Shown here: positions 2,856 to 18,044 of the stretch, one piece after another | Position numbering within the stretch: the stretch's first letter is position 1 | Layout: each line of letters starts with the position of its first letter | Origin: Macrostomum lignano | Taxonomy: Eukaryota | Length of the DNA: 31,117 nucleotides | Reading direction: 5' to 3' | Assembly: GCA_002269645.1 (NCBI GenBank) | Contig: NIVC01002893.1 | Coordinates: forward strand, 100,335-131,451 | Made by a program: the position numbers and the translations under genes | Notes under the pieces: generated by a model | The model's database searches: none | What the model was told of the DNA's origin: nothing | The model's input: the letters and a program-made list of their open reading frames with translations, nothing else

Positions 2856-3464
2856 TCACAGCAGCGCCTTGTGCCGGGTCTCGAACGCTTCCAGCTCGCG
2901 CACAATCTTGGCCCGCTCGCGGAGCGCCTTCCAAGCGGCGTCGCGGTCCTTCTTTAACGGCTGGCGTCGCTTCTGCCGGTAGGCCTGCAGCCTGGCGTGC
3001 GCCTCCACCACGTCGGCGTCGGCCACAGCCAGGCGACGCCGGATGGCCTGCCGCTGCGTGTCCAGCTTGGCCGCCGCGTACAGCCGCCGCAGCGTGGCCC
3101 TGTTGAAGTCGCACAGTCGGCGAAGCTCGCGCTGCCGTCCGCGCAGCGCCGTGGCCACCTCGTCGTCCGGATCGGCCGAGGCCGAGGATGAGGAAGTCAA
3201 CTGGGCGGCCGCGGCGGCTGCGGCGGCGGCAGCTTCAGCGGCGGCGGCTGCGGCCACCGCGCCCTCTGAGTCGCTTTCAGCGCCGGCTCCTCCAGCGCTG
3301 GCGGCGCCGCTGGCGGCCCCGGCAGCTGCGAGCCTGCCGGGCGAGACGCCGTGCCGTTCGAGCTGCTTGCGGAGCCGGCGCTCCAGCTTGCAGCTGTTGG
3401 AAACCCCCAGCAGTTTGGCCAGCTGCTTGGTTGGCAGCGCGGCGAGCTGCGCTGTCTGCTGCAT
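2856..3464 (-). CDS. TADA3: Transcriptional adapter 3 (SAGA/ATAC HAT module), last exon
   Basis: DDEVATALRGRQRELRRL...RRRLAVADADVVEAHARLQAYRQKRRQPLKKDRDAAWKALRER matches the Ada3 C-terminus (human DEVLAELRKRQAELKAL...KKRTPTKKEKDQAWKTLKER). Acceptor CCGCAG|ATG is phase 0; the exact acceptor is less certain. Stop TGA at 2856-2858. Confidence 0.9.
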   Translation of the reverse strand: MQQTAQLAALPTKQLAKLLGVSNSCKLERRLRKQLERHGVSPGRLAAAGAASGAASAGGAGAESDSEGAVAAAAAAEAAAAAAAAAAQLTSSSSASADPDDEVATALRGRQRELRRLCDFNRATLRRLYAAAKLDTQRQAIRRRLAVADADVVEAHARLQAYRQKRRQPLKKDRDAAWKALRERAKIVRELEAFETRHKALL

Positions 3465-3494
3465 CTGCGGTGCGGCGAGATGAGGCTTTGATGG

Positions 3495-4100
3495 CCTGAA
3501 CTCCTTACTGACACAGTCCTGAACTCAATACTGACACAGTCCTGAACTCCCTACTGACACAGTCCTGAACTCACTACTGACACAGTCCTGAACTCAATAC
3601 TGACACAGTCCTGAACTCACTACTGACACAGTCCTGAACTCACTACTGACACAGTCCTGAACTCCCTACTGACACAGTCCTGAACTCACTACTAACACAG
3701 TCCTGAACTCAATACTGACACAGTCCTGAACTCACTACTGACACAGTCCTGAACTCACTACTGACACAGTCCTGAACTACCTACTGATACAGTCCTGAAC
3801 TCACTGCTGACACAGTCCTGAACACCCTACTGACACAGTCCTGAACTCACTACTGACACAGTCCTGAACTCACTACTGACACAGTCCTGAACTCACTACT
3901 GACAAAGTCCTGAACTCAATACTAACACAGTCCTGAACTCACTACTGACAAAGTCCTGAACTCACTACTGACACAGTCCTGAACTCACTACTGACAAAGT
4001 CCTGAACTCACTACTGACACAGTCCTGAACTCACTACTGACACAGTCCTGAACTCACTACTGACACAGTCCTGAACTCACTACTGACAGACCAAACTCAA
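3495..4100. repeat. 23-bp intronic minisatellite (CTGACACAGTCCTGAACTCACTA)n, about 26 copies
   Basis: Tandem periodicity seen directly; fills TADA3 intron 3465-4127. Confidence 0.95.
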
Positions 4101-4127
4101 TACTGACAGCACAGCAGCCGGTCTCAC

Positions 4128-4951
4128 CAGTCCAGGATCGTCAGTGTCGGTCAGGGTCTCCGACTTGCAGACTCCGCTGTCTTCATCGTCATTGGCCACC
4201 AGAGCGGCCACCAGCTGCTGAGCCAGCGGCCCCAAACCGCCCGCATCGGCGCCGGCGCCAGAGTCCGCGCTGCCCAATGGCGTCGAATCGACGCAAATCT
4301 CGGCCTGCAGGCGCATCATGAGAGCGGCGCCATTGTCGCCAGCCGACTGTTGCTGGGAAGAATCGGAGGTTGGCAGCAATCCAGCGTCGATCTCGCCGCC
4401 ATGTTCGGCAATGGCGCCGTTACGACCATTTTTGCCGTTGCTGCTGTTGCTGCTGCTGCTGCTAATGCCGTTGAAGCCGCTGGCCGACTTCGACTCGCCG
4501 TTGCTGGCGACCTCGGCGGCGGCCGAGTTAGGCAGCGGCGGCATCCGGAAAAAGCCGGAGTCTTCGCCGATCTCGTACGATCGAATTAGCAGCTCCAGCG
4601 AGTGCAGATTGTCCTCCGTGATCTCGGCGCAGTACGGCTCCATCAGGGCCCAGAATTTGTTCGGCACCTCGTAGAGACCCGGCGGTGCGTCAGCCTGCTG
4701 CTGAGGTGTCGCCGACTCCGCCGCCGAGTCGGAATTAGCCGAAGCTCCAGCAGGTGCAGAAGCAGCAGCCGCAGCGACAGCAGCCGCCTTGTTCTTCCGC
4801 TGCTGATAGACACCGCCTGGTCGGAGCGGCTTGTTGTTTCCTGGAAAAGCGGCCACCGCGGCGGCGGCCGCGGCTCGTTTAGCCGGCGGCGCCAGAACTT
4901 CATCGGCAGACAGAGGACTGGCTGAGGCGTCGGCAGCGGCTGCGGCACCTG
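4128..4951 (-). CDS. TADA3: TADA3 middle exon
   Basis: VPNKFWALMEPYCAEITEDNLHSLELL...RMPPL and GLGPLAQQLVAALV match Ada3 (human APNRFWASVEPYCADIT...KIPPL; ALTQRLLQALV). NAGNAG acceptor at 4951/4948 (phase 1). Donor CTG|GTGAGA at 4128 (phase 0). Confidence 0.9.
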
Positions 4952-4982
4952 CTGAAGTGTTGCGCTTTTTTTATCACCTTCA

Positions 4983-6038
4983 GATCTATCCTTCGGATCC
5001 GTCCTTCTTATCTATCCGTCCGTCTATCTATCCGTCCTTCGGATCTATCCGTCTATCCGTCCGTTTATCTATCCGTCCTTCGGATCTATCCTTCGGATCT
5101 ACCCTTTGGATCTATTATTCGGATCTACCCTTCGGATCTATCCTTCGGATCTACCCTTCGGATCTATCCTTCGGATCTATCCTTCGTATCCTTCGGATCT
5201 ATCCTTCGGATCTATCCTTCGGATCTATCCTTCGGATCTATCCTTCGGATCTATCCTTCGGATCTATCCTTCGGATCTATCCTTCGGATCTATCCTTCGG
5301 ATCTATCCTTCGGATCTATCCTTCGGATCTATCCTTCGGATCTATCCTTCGGATCTATCCTTCGGATCTATCCTTCGGATCTATCCTTCGGATCTATCCT
5401 TCGGATCTATCCTTCGGATCTATCCTTCGGATCTATCCTTCGGATCTATCCTTCGGATCTATCCTTCGGATCTATCCTTCGGATCTATCCTTCGGATCTA
5501 TCCTTCGGATCTATCCTTCGGATCTATCCTTCGGATCTATCCTTCGGATCTATCCTTCGGATCTATCCTTCGGATCTATCCTTCGGATCTATCCTTCGGA
5601 TCTATCCTTCGGATCTATCCTTCGGATCTATCCTTCGGATCTATCCTTCGGATCTATCCTTCGGATCTATCCTTCGGATCTATCCTTCGGATCTATCCTT
5701 CGGATCTATCCTTCGGATCTATCCTTCGGATCTATCCTTCGGATCTATCCTTCGGATCTATCCTTCGGATCTATCCTTCGGATCTATCCTTCGGATCTAT
5801 CCTTCGGATCTATCCTTCGGATCTATCCTTCGGATCTATCCTTCGGATCTATCCTTCGGATCTATCCTTCGGATCTATCCTTCGGATCTATCCTTCGGAT
5901 CTATCCTTCGGATCTATCCTTCGGATCTATCCTTCGGATCTATCCTTCGGATCTATCCTTCGGATCTATCCTTCGGATCTATCCTTCGGATCTATCCTTC
6001 GGATCTATCCTTCGGATCTATCCTTCGGATCTATCCTT
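4983..6038. repeat. 13-bp intronic minisatellite (GGATCTATCCTTC)n, over 70 near-perfect copies
   Basis: Seen directly; degenerate at the left edge, homogeneous from about 5160. Confidence 0.97.
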
Positions 6039-6193
6039 TAAATCTTTAGCAGTCAGCTAGGACCTGCGGCTTATCATACTAGACTGTATCAGAATTCCCA
6101 CTTAGGAGTAGAACAATTGGAACATCGTGTCACAGTTTTTATTTCAAAGCTGGCAACAAAAACTGAGCCCTGAGCTATTTCTCGTTGTCTCAC

Positions 6194-6515
6194 CGTCAGC
6201 GCTTGTCGAGTCCTCGCGACGCCGCTTCAAGGAGATGGTCAGAGCCAGCGGCTTGCCGGGAACTGACTTGACCACGGCCGCTCCCGGCAGCCATTCTGAC
6301 TTGTTCGACCGGGTGATCAGGCCGCCAGGCAGTGGGGTGCCGCTGATCTCCGCGGCAAGCAGGAAGCTGCGCTTGTTCACATTGGCTAGCAGGGTCTCAG
6401 CCTCCCACTGCAGCCGGTCAATGTCCTCCGGCCGGACAGCTGGCCGGCTCAGCAGGGCAGCGATGCCTGGACACTCGGACTCCAGCGTCACCGACGGCAG
6501 CCACAGCGGGGACAT
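6194..6515 (-). CDS. TADA3: TADA3 first recognisable coding exon (start uncertain; may extend to about 6575 with an upstream exon)
   Basis: CPGIAALLSRPAVRPEDIDRLQWEAETLLANVNKRSFLLAAE matches the Ada3 N-terminus (CPRYTAVL...IEELDTLQLELETLLSSASRRLRVLEAE). Donor GACG|GTGAGA (phase 1) matches the next exon. The three exons total 1755 nt (584 aa). Confidence 0.85.
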
Positions 6516-6616
6516 TGTTGAGTCGGCCGCCGTCTGCCCGCCTCTGTGCGACTGACCGCTCTTGGACTTCGACTGCGGGCATGATGCAGCGATGAAGATG
6601 GCAGATATCTCAGAGA

Positions 6617-12858: not shown

Positions 12859-12918
12859 CTGGCAATGAAATGTTGCGGGCAGCCTTCGCTTCTGAGATCC
12901 CAGATCTCAGTCCCTAGA

Positions 12919-13102
12919 AGTAGTAATAGAAAATTACGTCCATACCCACTTTTCAATTGCAAAACACGTAATAAGGTACCCGTCAGAAATTTTATTACGC
13001 ACATACCTTATTTTTGTATTAAAAATCAAGTAGTAAGGTACCGAACCAAATGGTAGGGTATTCTACGGAATTCCAACTACACTGCACCGCACCCACAAAG
13101 AA
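12919..13102 (+). repeat. Left terminal inverted repeat of the mini-Polinton (degenerate similarity extends to about 13190)
   Basis: Reverse-complement match to 14872-15057. Confidence 0.93.
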
Positions 13103-13806
13103 CGAGAAAGAAAAGACCCCAACAACACCGATCAACCAAGTTGCTGAAAAACGACAGCTATTTCTGCATTACAAGAATAGAGGAAACACACACCCACAAA
13201 GAACAAAAGAAAAGATCTTAATAAATTGCAGAAGTCAAAATTGTGCCACAATCCCTCTGCAAGCAAAACCCAGCTCAGAACAGGACACAGGCAGTAAATA
13301 AGCCACGTGCTGCGCCCAGCCTTTTTTGTAACAGGAGTCATTCAAGACCCCAATTTTTTCATTTTCGAGAAAAGACCATTGAGACTTACGAAACTAAGTA
13401 TACTTGAATACAACTTGACTAAAATATAATACGCCAAAAGAAATATGCAGTTTTTAACTCTCAGTCACCGATCGAGAAACCGATCAAATCCAAAAAACCA
13501 GGTAATTGTAAGTGTTGCTGTGACAAGATCCGCCTGAGTTCGGTACTGACGGCCATGCACAATAATAAACTGAACCATCGTAGTAAGAAACAGTCTTTCG
13601 GTCGAATCAAGTTGACATGTCTATATATTTTAACAGATGAGATACACGATTAGTTAATTCATGACGTTAATTTCTTGATGCAAATGAACGCAAAAATGCG
13701 ATTTGACAGTCTTTTAAATAACTTTAAAATTCCCTAACGAATAGTGGATAAATAATTACAATACTAATAATACCAAATTATTTACGAGCTTCGTTCCATT
13801 GCACAG

Positions 13807-14122
13807 TCAGGCGTCCGCAGTCAAATCGCAGTAGTCAACCGTAGTGACTCTTCCCGACTCCTTCTCCCTGAAGAAGAAACGGAAGCAGCCAGCACCTAGG
13901 GCTTGTACAGCCAGGGCGTATTTACCTTCGCAAGCCGTGACATGCTCGGGGTACATATATATCCCGGCGGCGGCCGCGCAAAGACCCCGTTCTTGAACGC
14001 TGCAAAGAGAGAAGACGCAGCCCATTACTACCTCATTAGCCTCTGAATAAACAAAAAGCCCAATGCTTACCATCTCTCACATATCGCTCAGCTAGTTCCT
14101 TCTTTTGCGCGGATTTGTCCAT
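13807..14122 (-). pseudogene. Small unknown ORF inside the element (88-aa ORF 14073-13807, possibly a frameshifted continuation of MDKSAQKKELAERYVRDGKHW starting at 14122)
   Basis: GC-richer, coding-like segment divergent from the protease. No family recognised. Confidence 0.3.
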
Positions 14123-14300
14123 ATTCGTAGTGAGTGAATGCGTTTAGACAAGACTAGAAAATTTTCCGGACTGCTGTCGGTAGGATCTTATATTCAGCAA
14201 AATTACTCATAGGGACGACTGAGATCTCATGTGGTGGATTAGGGAGGGTCAGGGTTGGTTGAGAGGAAGGGGTGGATCGAGTTGGGAGCCACCAACGTAA

Positions 14301-14727
14301 AGGGAGCGAGAAGGGGGGTTCGTTCTACCTAGTCAGCAGAGGGTTTCGCGTTGGCGGCAGCTGCAACCTTTAGATGATAAAGACTATTTCTTTGTGGCGA
14401 ATACAGACACTTCGAATCTTCCTGGTAGGCATTGGGTTGTAGTTTGGGTGAGTAGCAGGCGGGTTAGGGGGGCGCCGTGGACGAAGAGTCGGGGAATATT
14501 TTGATACGCTTGGTTTAAATCCATCGGAAAATATTAGACGGTGGTTGAGGCGAGAATGTGGGGATTTTCAAAATTGGTCCTACAGCCGATTTGCTATTCA
14601 GGATCCTCGGACTGGTCATTGTGGTATTTGGGTGTTGTTTTATTTGTATTTCAAACTGACTGGTGGTGGTGGCCTTCGATTCTTTTTAACGCGTATTCTT
14701 GGTTGTGGGTCTCGTCGAAGGAAATGA
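14301..14727 (+). pseudogene. Adenain-like (clan CE, Polinton PRO-type) cysteine protease, frameshifted
   Basis: First frame: YFFVANTDTSNLPGRHWVVVWV (His at 14430). After one extra G in the G6 run at 14467-14472: GEYFDTLGLNP (Asp at 14503)...WSYSRFAIQDPRTGHCGIWVLFYL (Gln 14599, Cys 14620). Order and spacing match the NTD..PG.HWV / EYFDS.G / Q...S..CG pattern of adenovirus and Polinton proteases. The N-terminus is disrupted (TAA at 14298). Confidence 0.85.
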
Positions 14728-14871
14728 ATTTCGGCGCACGTATTTTTGCCTACGACGCTTTGCAGCACATGTGTTGCCTCTGTTCCTGTAATGCAGAAAT
14801 ATACCGAAAGTGCGTTTTTGGACAAGTTGGTTGGTTGGTTGATCGAAATTGAGATCTTTTCTTCTTTTGGA

Positions 14872-15057
14872 TTCTTTGTGGGTGCGGTGCAGTGTAGTTA
14901 CAATTCCTGTAGAATACCCTACCCTTTGGTTCGGTACCTTACTACTTGATTTTTAATAGAAAAATAGGGTATGTGCGTAATAAAATTTCTGACGGGTACC
15001 TTATTACGTGTTTTGCAATTGAAAAGTGAGGTATGGACGTAATTTTCTATTACTACT
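14872..15057 (-). repeat. Right terminal inverted repeat of the mini-Polinton
   Basis: Reverse-complement match to 12919-13102. Confidence 0.93.
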
Positions 15058-16150
15058 CCTAGATCCTAGATCCTAGATCCTAGATCCTAGATCCCAGATC
15101 CTAGATCACAGATCCTAGATCCAGATCCTAGATCCCAGATCCTAGATCCCAGATCCTAGATCCCAGATCCTAGATCCCAGATCCTAGATCCCAGATCCTA
15201 GATCCCAGATCCTAGATCCTAGATCCTAGATCCTAGATCCCAGATCCCAGATCCTAGATCCTAGATCCCAGATCCTAGATCCTAGATCCCAGATCCTAGA
15301 TCCTAGATCCCAGATCCTAGATCCTAGATCCCAGATCCTAGATCCTAGATCCCAGATCCTAGATCCTAGATCCTAGATCCCAGATCCTAGATCCCAGATC
15401 CTAGATCCCAGATCCTAGATCCCAGATCCTAGATCCTAGATCCTAGATCCCAGATCCTAGATCCCAGATCCTAGATCCCAGATCCTAGATCCCAGATCCT
15501 AGATCCCAGATCCTAGATCCCAGATCCTAGATCCCAGATCCTAGATCCCAGATCCTAGATCCCAGATCCTAGATCCCAGATCCTAGATCCCAGATCCTAG
15601 ATCCCAGATCCTAGATCCCAGATCCTAGATCCCAGATCCTAGATCCCAGATCCTAGATCCCAGATCCTAGATCCCAGATCCTAGATCCCAGATCCTAGAT
15701 CCCAGATCCTAGATCCCAGATCCTAGATCCCAGATCCTAGATCCCAGATCCTAGATCCCAGATCCTAGATCCAGATCCTAGATCCCAGATCCTAGATCCC
15801 AGATCCTAGATCCCAGATCCTAGATCCCAGATCCTAGATCCCAGATCCTAGATCCCAGATCCTAGATCCCAGATCCTAGATCCCAGATCCTAGATCCCAG
15901 ATCCTAGATCCCAGATCCTAGATCCCAGATCCTAGATCCCAGATCCTAGATCCCAGATCCTAGATCCCAGATCCTAGATCCCAGATCCTAGATCCCAGAT
16001 CCTAGATCCCAGATCCTAGATCCCAGATCCTAGATCCCAGATCCTAGATCCCAGATCCTAGATCCCAGATCCTAGATCCCAGATCTAGATCCCAGATCCT
16101 AGATCCCAGATCGATCCCAGATCCTAGATCCCAATAGATCCCAGATCCCC
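15058..16150. repeat. 7/14-bp satellite (GATCCTA GATCCCA)n, about 1.1 kb
   Basis: Seen directly. A residual stub (GAGATCCCAGATCTC) lies left of the Polinton at about 12894-12910. Confidence 0.97.
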
Positions 16151-16202
16151 CAAACCGCCAGTTTCTGGACAATAACGGACCCAATATCCCAGATCCCCAA
16201 AC

Positions 16203-16605
16203 CGCAGCCCGCAACGCCAACCTGCAGCAGTACGCCCCGGCAGTGCCGGTAGGCGTTGGGCTTAGACGAATCCCCAAAGTCGCCGGTACTTCCAGTTGAC
16301 GCCACTGGCCGCAGTCGGGGTTGACGGAGGCGGTCGCCAGCTGCTGCTGCTGCTGTGCTGGCGAGGGTCGCTGGCTGACGCTGAGCAGGCGGCTGCTCAG
16401 ACTGCGTGCCGGGGCGGGAGCCACGCAGCGGGCGCAACCGGGACAAGCCGGCGTCCAGTCAATGACGCAGCCGACTGGGACGGCGGCAGCGGCCGAAGGC
16501 GAGGCGGTCTCGGCCAGCCAGTGCAGACAGCGCTGCGCCACTGTAGGCAGGTTGCGCCGAATGGCCGAGGCTTCGGTGGCGCGCTCGCGCTGTCTAAGAC
16601 TGGAC
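16203..16605 (-). CDS. AGK: AGK exon 3
   Basis: Acceptor GGCAG|G completes TGG, giving LEW-SSLRQR (human LRWGSFRD); also GQWRQLEV (human EVWKDVQL). Phase-0 donor GCG|GTTTGG chosen to match exon 4. Confidence 0.75.
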
Positions 16606-17450: not shown

Positions 17451-17519
17451 TTAACCTCTTATCTACGAGTGTAGGAATCTTAATACGCTGCATATGCAAT
17501 AAATATGGCCAAAACGCAC

Positions 17520-17956
17520 CACTCGAGCGCGGTCAGGCAGTAGGTGTCCCTCGGCAGCTCAGAATCGCCCCCTAGTCTGACTCGAACTCGCATGGGTCGA
17601 ACAGCAGCTATTCGCTTAGTAGTTGTTGCAGTATTATTGAAATTTGCGGAAGTCGCCTGCAGCAGGGCTTCCACAGTCCGCCGGCAAGCCTCCGGCAGGC
17701 CTTCGGCGGGACTTGCGCCGCCGCCAACGCCAGTCGACACTGTCGACGTCGAATCGCTGCGCCGGCCAAGCGGAGCGGCGGCAACCGGCAGGCGAGCGGC
17801 AACTCGGCGAGAGTCTGGCCGGCGGAGCAGACCCGTGACCGCCTGCATCAGGGTGCCATCGCCGCCTGCAACCAGCACAGCGTCAGTGCTGTTGAGGTCC
17901 AGCACCTCCATGAAGCCTTTGTTCTCGTCCTCCGCGTCGCCTTCAACTAGTTGCAC
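17520..17956 (-). CDS. AGK: AGK exon 2 (DAG-kinase catalytic motif)
   Basis: [23 protein letters not shown]...LPVAAAPLG matches AGK [23 protein letters not shown]...IPIGFIPLG. Acceptor CTGCAG|GTG; donor TG|GTGCGT. Confidence 0.92.
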
Positions 17957-18044
17957 CTGCAGCAGGCAGACGACAAGTGAATGATGGAGCACGGATTAAG
18001 GAATTCTGATTAGGAGATTTTCAATAGATCGCAATGTTTTTACC

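Follow-up and report, generated by a model that had tools for sequence, protein, structure and literature searches.

Animal Mavericks and Related Defective Elements

Mavericks are recognized by a 5'-(AGT)2//(ACT)2-3' motif at their ends and by a 6-bp target duplication, their terminal inverted repeats range from 46 to 1,447 bp, and intact vertebrate copies measure 12.7–24.6 kb and are reported to be intronless, while 96% of vertebrate Maverick loci are degraded (accessible text of PMC8097293). The protease of full-size elements is a virion maturation enzyme (accessible parts of PMC5499653; bioRxiv 10.1101/2023.08.22.554363). Defective forms include polymerase-less, apparently mobile Pieris polintons with terminal repeats, and in some butterfly polintons adenain lies at the very end of the element, within the terminal repeats (available portion of bioRxiv 10.1101/2025.02.07.637071). 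Defective Polinton remnants are likewise described from Caenorhabditis elegans (available portion of bioRxiv 10.1101/2024.01.15.575659).

Here we describe an element of Macrostomum lignano, found within a stretch of 31,117 nucleotides (the window). It resembles animal Mavericks/Polintons (adintoviruses) in its (AGT)2//(ACT)2 ends, its 6-bp target duplication, and its adenain-type protease, and its inverted repeats fall within the length range given above. Unlike Mavericks, it has no polymerase, integrase, ATPase, or capsid genes, and it is 2.1 kb long, in contrast to the 12.7–24.6 kb of intact vertebrate copies. It shares a defective state with the Pieris and C. elegans cases, and terminal repeats with the former; however, those cases either exceed 12 kb or are remnants with a single end, whereas the present element is a 2-kb, two-gene unit. 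We consider it likely to be a decaying, non-autonomous Maverick derivative that has been internally reduced and whose protease is broken in three places.

No description of Macrostomum Polinton/Maverick elements was found in the literature searched, most subscription papers and Repbase, which includes non-autonomous Polintons, lying outside its reach. The words "Maverick" and "Polinton" are absent from the three supplement files of PMC5730564, and the accessible part of bioRxiv 10.1101/2022.07.12.499685 held nothing relevant. The comparison also drew on the available portions of PMC6431247, PMC8502044, PMC3014272, and PMC12220804.

A Short Element With Maverick Ends in a Host Intron

The window was compared with short-read contigs from four (X1, X4, X6, and X11) of 20 matching runs; such contigs carry no strand, start, or level information for transcripts. 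X1, although labelled "DNA?", joins host exons across an intron and must therefore contain RNA, whereas X4 behaves as DNA. The element and its surroundings comprise the following features.

12859–16221, minus strand: host intron (GT-AG) containing the element and a 14-bp-period satellite; spliced join in X1, X6, and X11
12913–12918, plus strand: left copy of the target-site duplication CCTAGA, 6 bp
12919–15057, no strand assigned: whole element, 2,139 bp, a likely non-autonomous Maverick/Polinton derivative, delimited by its ends, its inverted repeats, and X4 contigs starting at 12919
12919–13190, plus strand: left terminal inverted repeat, 272-bp arm
14770–15057, minus strand: right terminal inverted repeat, 288-bp arm, its inner end overlapping the final protease codons
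15058–15063, plus strand: right copy of the target-site duplication, CCTAGA, which recurs as a unit in the flanking satellite

Three features place the element among the Mavericks/Polintons: terminal inverted repeats, the 5'-(AGT)2//(ACT)2-3' motif, and a 6-bp target duplication. The termini read AGTAGT on the left and ACTACT on the right, and the repeat arms are 96% alike over their outer 170 bp and 87% alike across 288 columns. Because the right CCTAGA is also a satellite unit, it is weaker evidence for a target duplication. Three X4 contigs begin exactly at 12919 with different flanks; therefore, the same end is present at other loci.

Stop-to-stop frames to the left of the protease reach at most 92 aa, and Pfam gave no match in the six scanned of 11 such frames; the element is therefore not autonomous. 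Within those bounds (frames of at most 92 aa, six of 11 scanned), neither a protein-primed polymerase B nor a retroviral-like integrase was found; major and minor capsid genes and a packaging ATPase are also missing, and 2.1 kb leaves no room for any such set. Rfam found nothing within the element.

The left repeat differs in length among copies. Its inner part (13090–13190) is a diverged inverted copy of about 14770–14870, including the last protease codons, and is flanked by 27-bp direct repeats; this stretch is absent from sister contigs of X1, X4, and X11, and therefore repeat length varies among copies. Every contig of X1, X4, and X6 that covers position 13190 has another letter there, and the letter in the window is a probable assembly error. 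Past the left repeat, at 13219, contigs from X1 and X6 lead into at least 255 other letters, so that the same end joins a different interior. Further inward, 13519–13600 is common to a variant that diverges at 13519 (X1 has a loose end there, and substitutions cluster in X1, X4, and X6); either a nested repeat or a deletion breakpoint may be involved.

The element lies in an intron of a minus-strand gene with a DAGK_cat exon at 17480–17995, and contigs of X1, X6, and X11 directly join the exons on either side of the intron. Minus-strand exons in the window carry Ada3, ankyrin, DAGK_cat, and C2H2 zinc-finger domains; the last exons of the host gene have no Pfam match. The Ada3-domain exon (2856–3524) is 100% identical to Macrostomum lignano proteins in NCBI and UniRef. 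The Ada3 gene (2856–6600) is matched by four NCBI accessions, all in one 90% cluster, and the host region is therefore duplicated in the assembly. Almost every inter-exon gap from 3495 to 25099 contains a minisatellite of its own (periods 13–33 bp, several of them 23 bp), and the insertion point of the element coincides with the start of the 14-bp-period array at 15057–16148. In a host exon, a C run (16235–16238) is one base shorter than in the RNA contigs of X1, X6, and X11, which shifts the frame into the last exon. An assembly slip or a paralogous allele is the probable cause; the end of the alternative frame may resemble acylglycerol kinase.

The Protease Is of the Adenain Type

The gene at the right end of the element is divided as follows.

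14164–14365, plus strand: N-terminus region, with no match to relatives; ATG 14229 in frame, closed by TAA 14298–14300
14301–14451, plus strand: first protease piece, carrying the NTD motif and His 14430, recognizable from about 14360
14452–14493, plus strand: first frame change, between His and Asp, with the G6 run 14467–14472 inside
14473–14721, plus strand: second protease piece, carrying Asp 14503, Gln 14599, and Cys 14620; frame ends at TGA 14725–14727
14723–14791, plus strand: third protease piece, comprising the C-terminal helix and lying in a third frame; stop TAA 14789–14791

An earlier note on this DNA, made from the letters alone, had proposed an adenain-like cysteine protease with all catalytic residues present, and its codon assignments are correct: PGRHW from 14421 (His 14430), EYFD from 14494 (Asp 14503), IQDP from 14596 (Gln 14599), and GHCG from 14614 (Cys 14620). 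The four residues stand in the His-Asp-Gln-Cys order of clan CE and are invariant columns in a 20-row alignment. When the frame change was read through with an inserted X, the resulting 140-aa protein matched 426 proteins at E ≤ 1e-3 (HMMER, 1.84 billion representatives; best 4.5e-38), the best relative being 58% identical. As judged from these alignments, the similarity is far beyond chance. The Pfam C48 score of 18.4 bits (E = 0.002) lies under the curated 20.7 and there was no C5 match; the C5 threshold is passed by two of the 10 best relatives, and C5 occurs in 25–38% of members among the Atlas neighbours of the relative P0002. African swine fever virus (ASFV) pS273R was matched by sequence as well (E = 1.3e-4).

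Structure prediction gave a model with a pLDDT of 83.6. Among viral folds, the top Foldseek match was the adenain of the Terrapene box turtle adintovirus (A0A5H3CM23; E 3.6e-5, 26% identity), and the nearest PDB entries were the CidB DUB, pS273R, and Ulp1. The predicted fold is thus that of clan CE and of adenain type, and with these fold matches and 426 relatives the proposed Polinton/Maverick origin of the gene stands. The window gene shares its His-Asp-Gln-Cys order and fold with the Terrapene adenain, pS273R, and Ulp1/SENP, but unlike them it is divided among three frames and is missing the helix and strand at the N-terminus. Its closest relatives come from Logan contigs (P0002, P0156, and P0157); P0002 is 58% identical and has the same long His-Asp loop. 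Together with the window protease these three form one clade (support 95/88, bootstrap unsettled), but unlike the window gene they are single open frames of 183–190 aa.

Several searches were negative or yielded chance matches. A word-indexed protein search with the X read-through protein retained 0 of 129 candidates. Viral contigs held nine distant proteases (24–33% identity); the alignment of close relatives matched none among these contigs, and the end motif of the element is likewise absent there. A metagenome locus (L001) was rejected as a chance match, and matches to toxin A (E ≥ 0.2) were rejected as chance similarity over a short stretch.

Deubiquitinase and deSUMOylase activities are a clan-level property, and the presence of Ulp1/SENP and CE-clan deubiquitinases among the fold neighbours might suggest that the host has domesticated the protease for such a function. 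The same neighbours would be expected of any adenain, however, and the gene is broken and lies antisense in a host intron, within intact transposon ends. Domestication is therefore highly improbable.

Three Lesions Divide the Protease Gene

As far as its sequence tells, the window does not encode a complete clan CE domain in one reading frame, and three lesions account for this. The first concerns the N-terminus, which the earlier note had thought disrupted. TAA 14298–14300 is present as described, and upstream of about 14360 no relative was matched in any frame. A profile of 136 relatives begins to match the window only at its position 35 of 173; for a profile built from the three closest relatives, the match begins only at position 49 of 190. 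The first-strand motif of the family, found in 97 of the 137 relatives with enough upstream sequence, is absent here in all frames; in the model of the intact relative P0002, the N-terminal helix (H10–23) and strand (E27–34) are confidently modelled. The ATG at 14229 was considered as the true N-terminus and rejected. Its spacing to the V-x-P and NTD motifs equals that of the relatives, and its reading frame meets the TAA after 23 codons; the segment scores no better than shuffles (1,823 of 3,000 reach its score), and we regard the agreement in spacing as coincidence or as an unrecognizable remnant.

The second lesion separates His, in one frame, from Asp, Gln, and Cys, all in the next. The earlier note had ascribed this break to one extra G in the G6 run; the frame change is real, but by sequence alone it can be placed anywhere within 14452–14493, and the G run is singled out in this interval because copies differ in length there. 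With X inserted, the His-Asp loop aligns without gaps to P0002 and P0156.

Finally, a further frame change near 14722, absent from the earlier note, puts the C-terminal helix (14723–14791) out of frame. The 22 codons 14723–14788 match the last helix of the relatives (+14.7 bits), a score reached by two of 5,000 shuffles and by none of 7,606 22-mers of the window.

The earlier note had suggested that the homopolymer indel might be a long-read error, and the window does differ from the contigs at the C run 16235–16238 and at 13190, so that errors in the assembly might mask an intact gene. The contigs speak against this. Pieces identical to the window span TAA 14298 in all four runs, and gap-free pieces cross 14722 in X1, X6, and X11. 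At the G run there are no length differences in these same three runs (0 of 170, 33, and 28 depth, respectively). Among the contig pieces listed none bridges 14407–14630, and support at the G run is by depth arithmetic: the depths of the four X1 contigs sum only if a contig with window-private letters covers the run. Thus the stop recurs in four of four runs and both frame changes, indirectly in the case of the G run, in three of four. Since the window apparently slips elsewhere (16235–16238 and 13190), agreement at the protease sites is the more telling. Moreover, a homopolymer slip cannot explain a missing N-terminus. We regard assembly error as very unlikely.

Alternatively, the G run could be a site of transcriptional or ribosomal slippage that yields an active protease from the window copy, as had also been suggested. 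The break seems to be common to more than one copy type, being constant in X1, X6, and X11, and a sister type 89% alike shows zero net length change. Yet the three closest relatives keep an open frame through the His-Asp loop, some X4 copies differ at the run, and two further lesions would persist after any slip there; we give this reading almost no weight. What fits is the earlier note's fallback, a decaying copy: the three lesions are reproduced in short-read contigs, the one at the G run indirectly.

A Second Gene on the Minus Strand

The protease had been described as the only retained cargo of the element. This is contradicted by a spliced 51-codon gene at 14122–13896 on the minus strand.

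13896–14122, minus strand: small divergent gene with two exons and 51 codons, from ATG 14122 to stop TAG 13896–13898
14000–14070, minus strand: intron of the small gene, 71-nt GT-AG; the donor is GTAAG, the acceptor is rich in pyrimidines, and contigs from sister copies show it removed

Splicing is seen as a joint 14000→14073 (14001–14072 skipped) in X1 (depth 64) and X6 (depth 7), with a matching loose end in X11. The spliced contigs bear the letters of sister copies, and window-type contigs are unspliced there. This intron sets the element apart from intact vertebrate Mavericks, reported intronless (accessible text of PMC8097293). The predicted protein is basic (10 of 51 codons Lys/Arg; pI 9.9), and its exon 2 has no Pfam match and scores only 0.80 against the Atlas. 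A possible second donor-acceptor pair lies at 13868–13925, with no matching joint among the contig joints listed.

Five of the seven listed substitutions in the small gene are synonymous (40 best-supported of 161 rows; binomial P = 0.013 against 25%), one substitution in the intron and one past the stop being left out of the count. In the protease core (14440–14708), three of 12 listed substitutions are synonymous, about the neutral share (again the 40 best-supported of 161 rows). At six sites all X4 cover differs from the window, and all six differences change the residue; zero synonymous of six has P = 0.18 under neutrality (same best-supported 40 of 161 rows), and all these substitution counts are weak evidence.

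Sister Copies and the Question of a Selected Family

Other copies differ from the window at each lesion. Four X4 contigs (178 of 252 depth) have another length than the window at the G run, as does one (172 of 411 depth) at 14722; therefore, copies without each of these breaks exist. The segment 14164–14365 is replaced by a different sequence in other copies (joint 14163→14366, loose ends), and the last codons of this alternative 5' segment are open in the His frame. Together, these observations make an intact protease elsewhere in the family possible. Other sister types are damaged. Pieces about 89% alike to the window have the same length from 14366 past the Asp codon (X1, X4, and X11), whereas in X1 and X11 another type falls short by 11 bases at its 3' end; by these lengths both types are also out of frame. 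As a rough measure, the host region itself being duplicated, window-type internal contigs in X4 have 2.5–3.2 times the depth of the host exon contig. None of the pieces compared spans the whole element; other copies may share its 2-kb internal structure.

One interpretation of these data is a helper-dependent miniature family, either a satellite or a segment of a multipartite element sharing its ends, that keeps the protease and the small spliced basic protein by selection, with the window copy as a dead member. The multi-copy state of the internal parts in X4, the copies lacking each frame break, the splicing of the small gene in two studies together with its mostly synonymous listed substitutions, and the different sequence that follows the left repeat from 13219 in X1 and X6 would all fit such a family. 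Against it, the window-type broken 5' segment itself stands at raised depth in X4 (103 versus 40 for the host exon contig, roughly 2.6-fold, with the same duplication of the host region), and the reading frame is broken in two or more sister types, so copies have spread without a working protease. In addition, the spliced and open-frame pieces may derive from full-size elements. We therefore consider a selected miniature family improbable, although less so than the assembly-error, slippage, and domestication readings discussed above.

A Probable Passenger Copy and Its Protease Beside the Right Repeat

Under the preferred reading, that of a decaying non-autonomous derivative, a full-size relative would have supplied, in trans, the enzymes that recognized the ends of the element and copied and inserted it. 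What survives would be those ends and a terminal gene block, made up of the small minus-strand gene and the divergently oriented protease. The protease most likely survived because it adjoins the right inverted repeat. Its stop lies inside that repeat, and a deletion that spares the right end would tend to spare the protease too. We know of no role in cis for a maturation protease; on this reading the gene is dispensable in cis and has decayed, and the window copy would make no active enzyme. We take the window copy for an ordinary passenger in decay rather than an enzyme retained for its function. Neither a full-size partner nor a deletion breakpoint was found in the window or in the contigs of X1, X4, X6, and X11.

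Degraded, non-autonomous Mavericks are common, and as read here the element is of little import in itself. It nevertheless documents that the regeneration model Macrostomum lignano has a Maverick family that is multi-copy and transcribed, and it reveals a spliceosomal-type intron within a group whose genes are reported to be intronless. Should selection turn out to maintain both genes in 2-kb copies, such copies would be a compact system in which to study whether Maverick satellites exist and what genes packaging by a helper requires.
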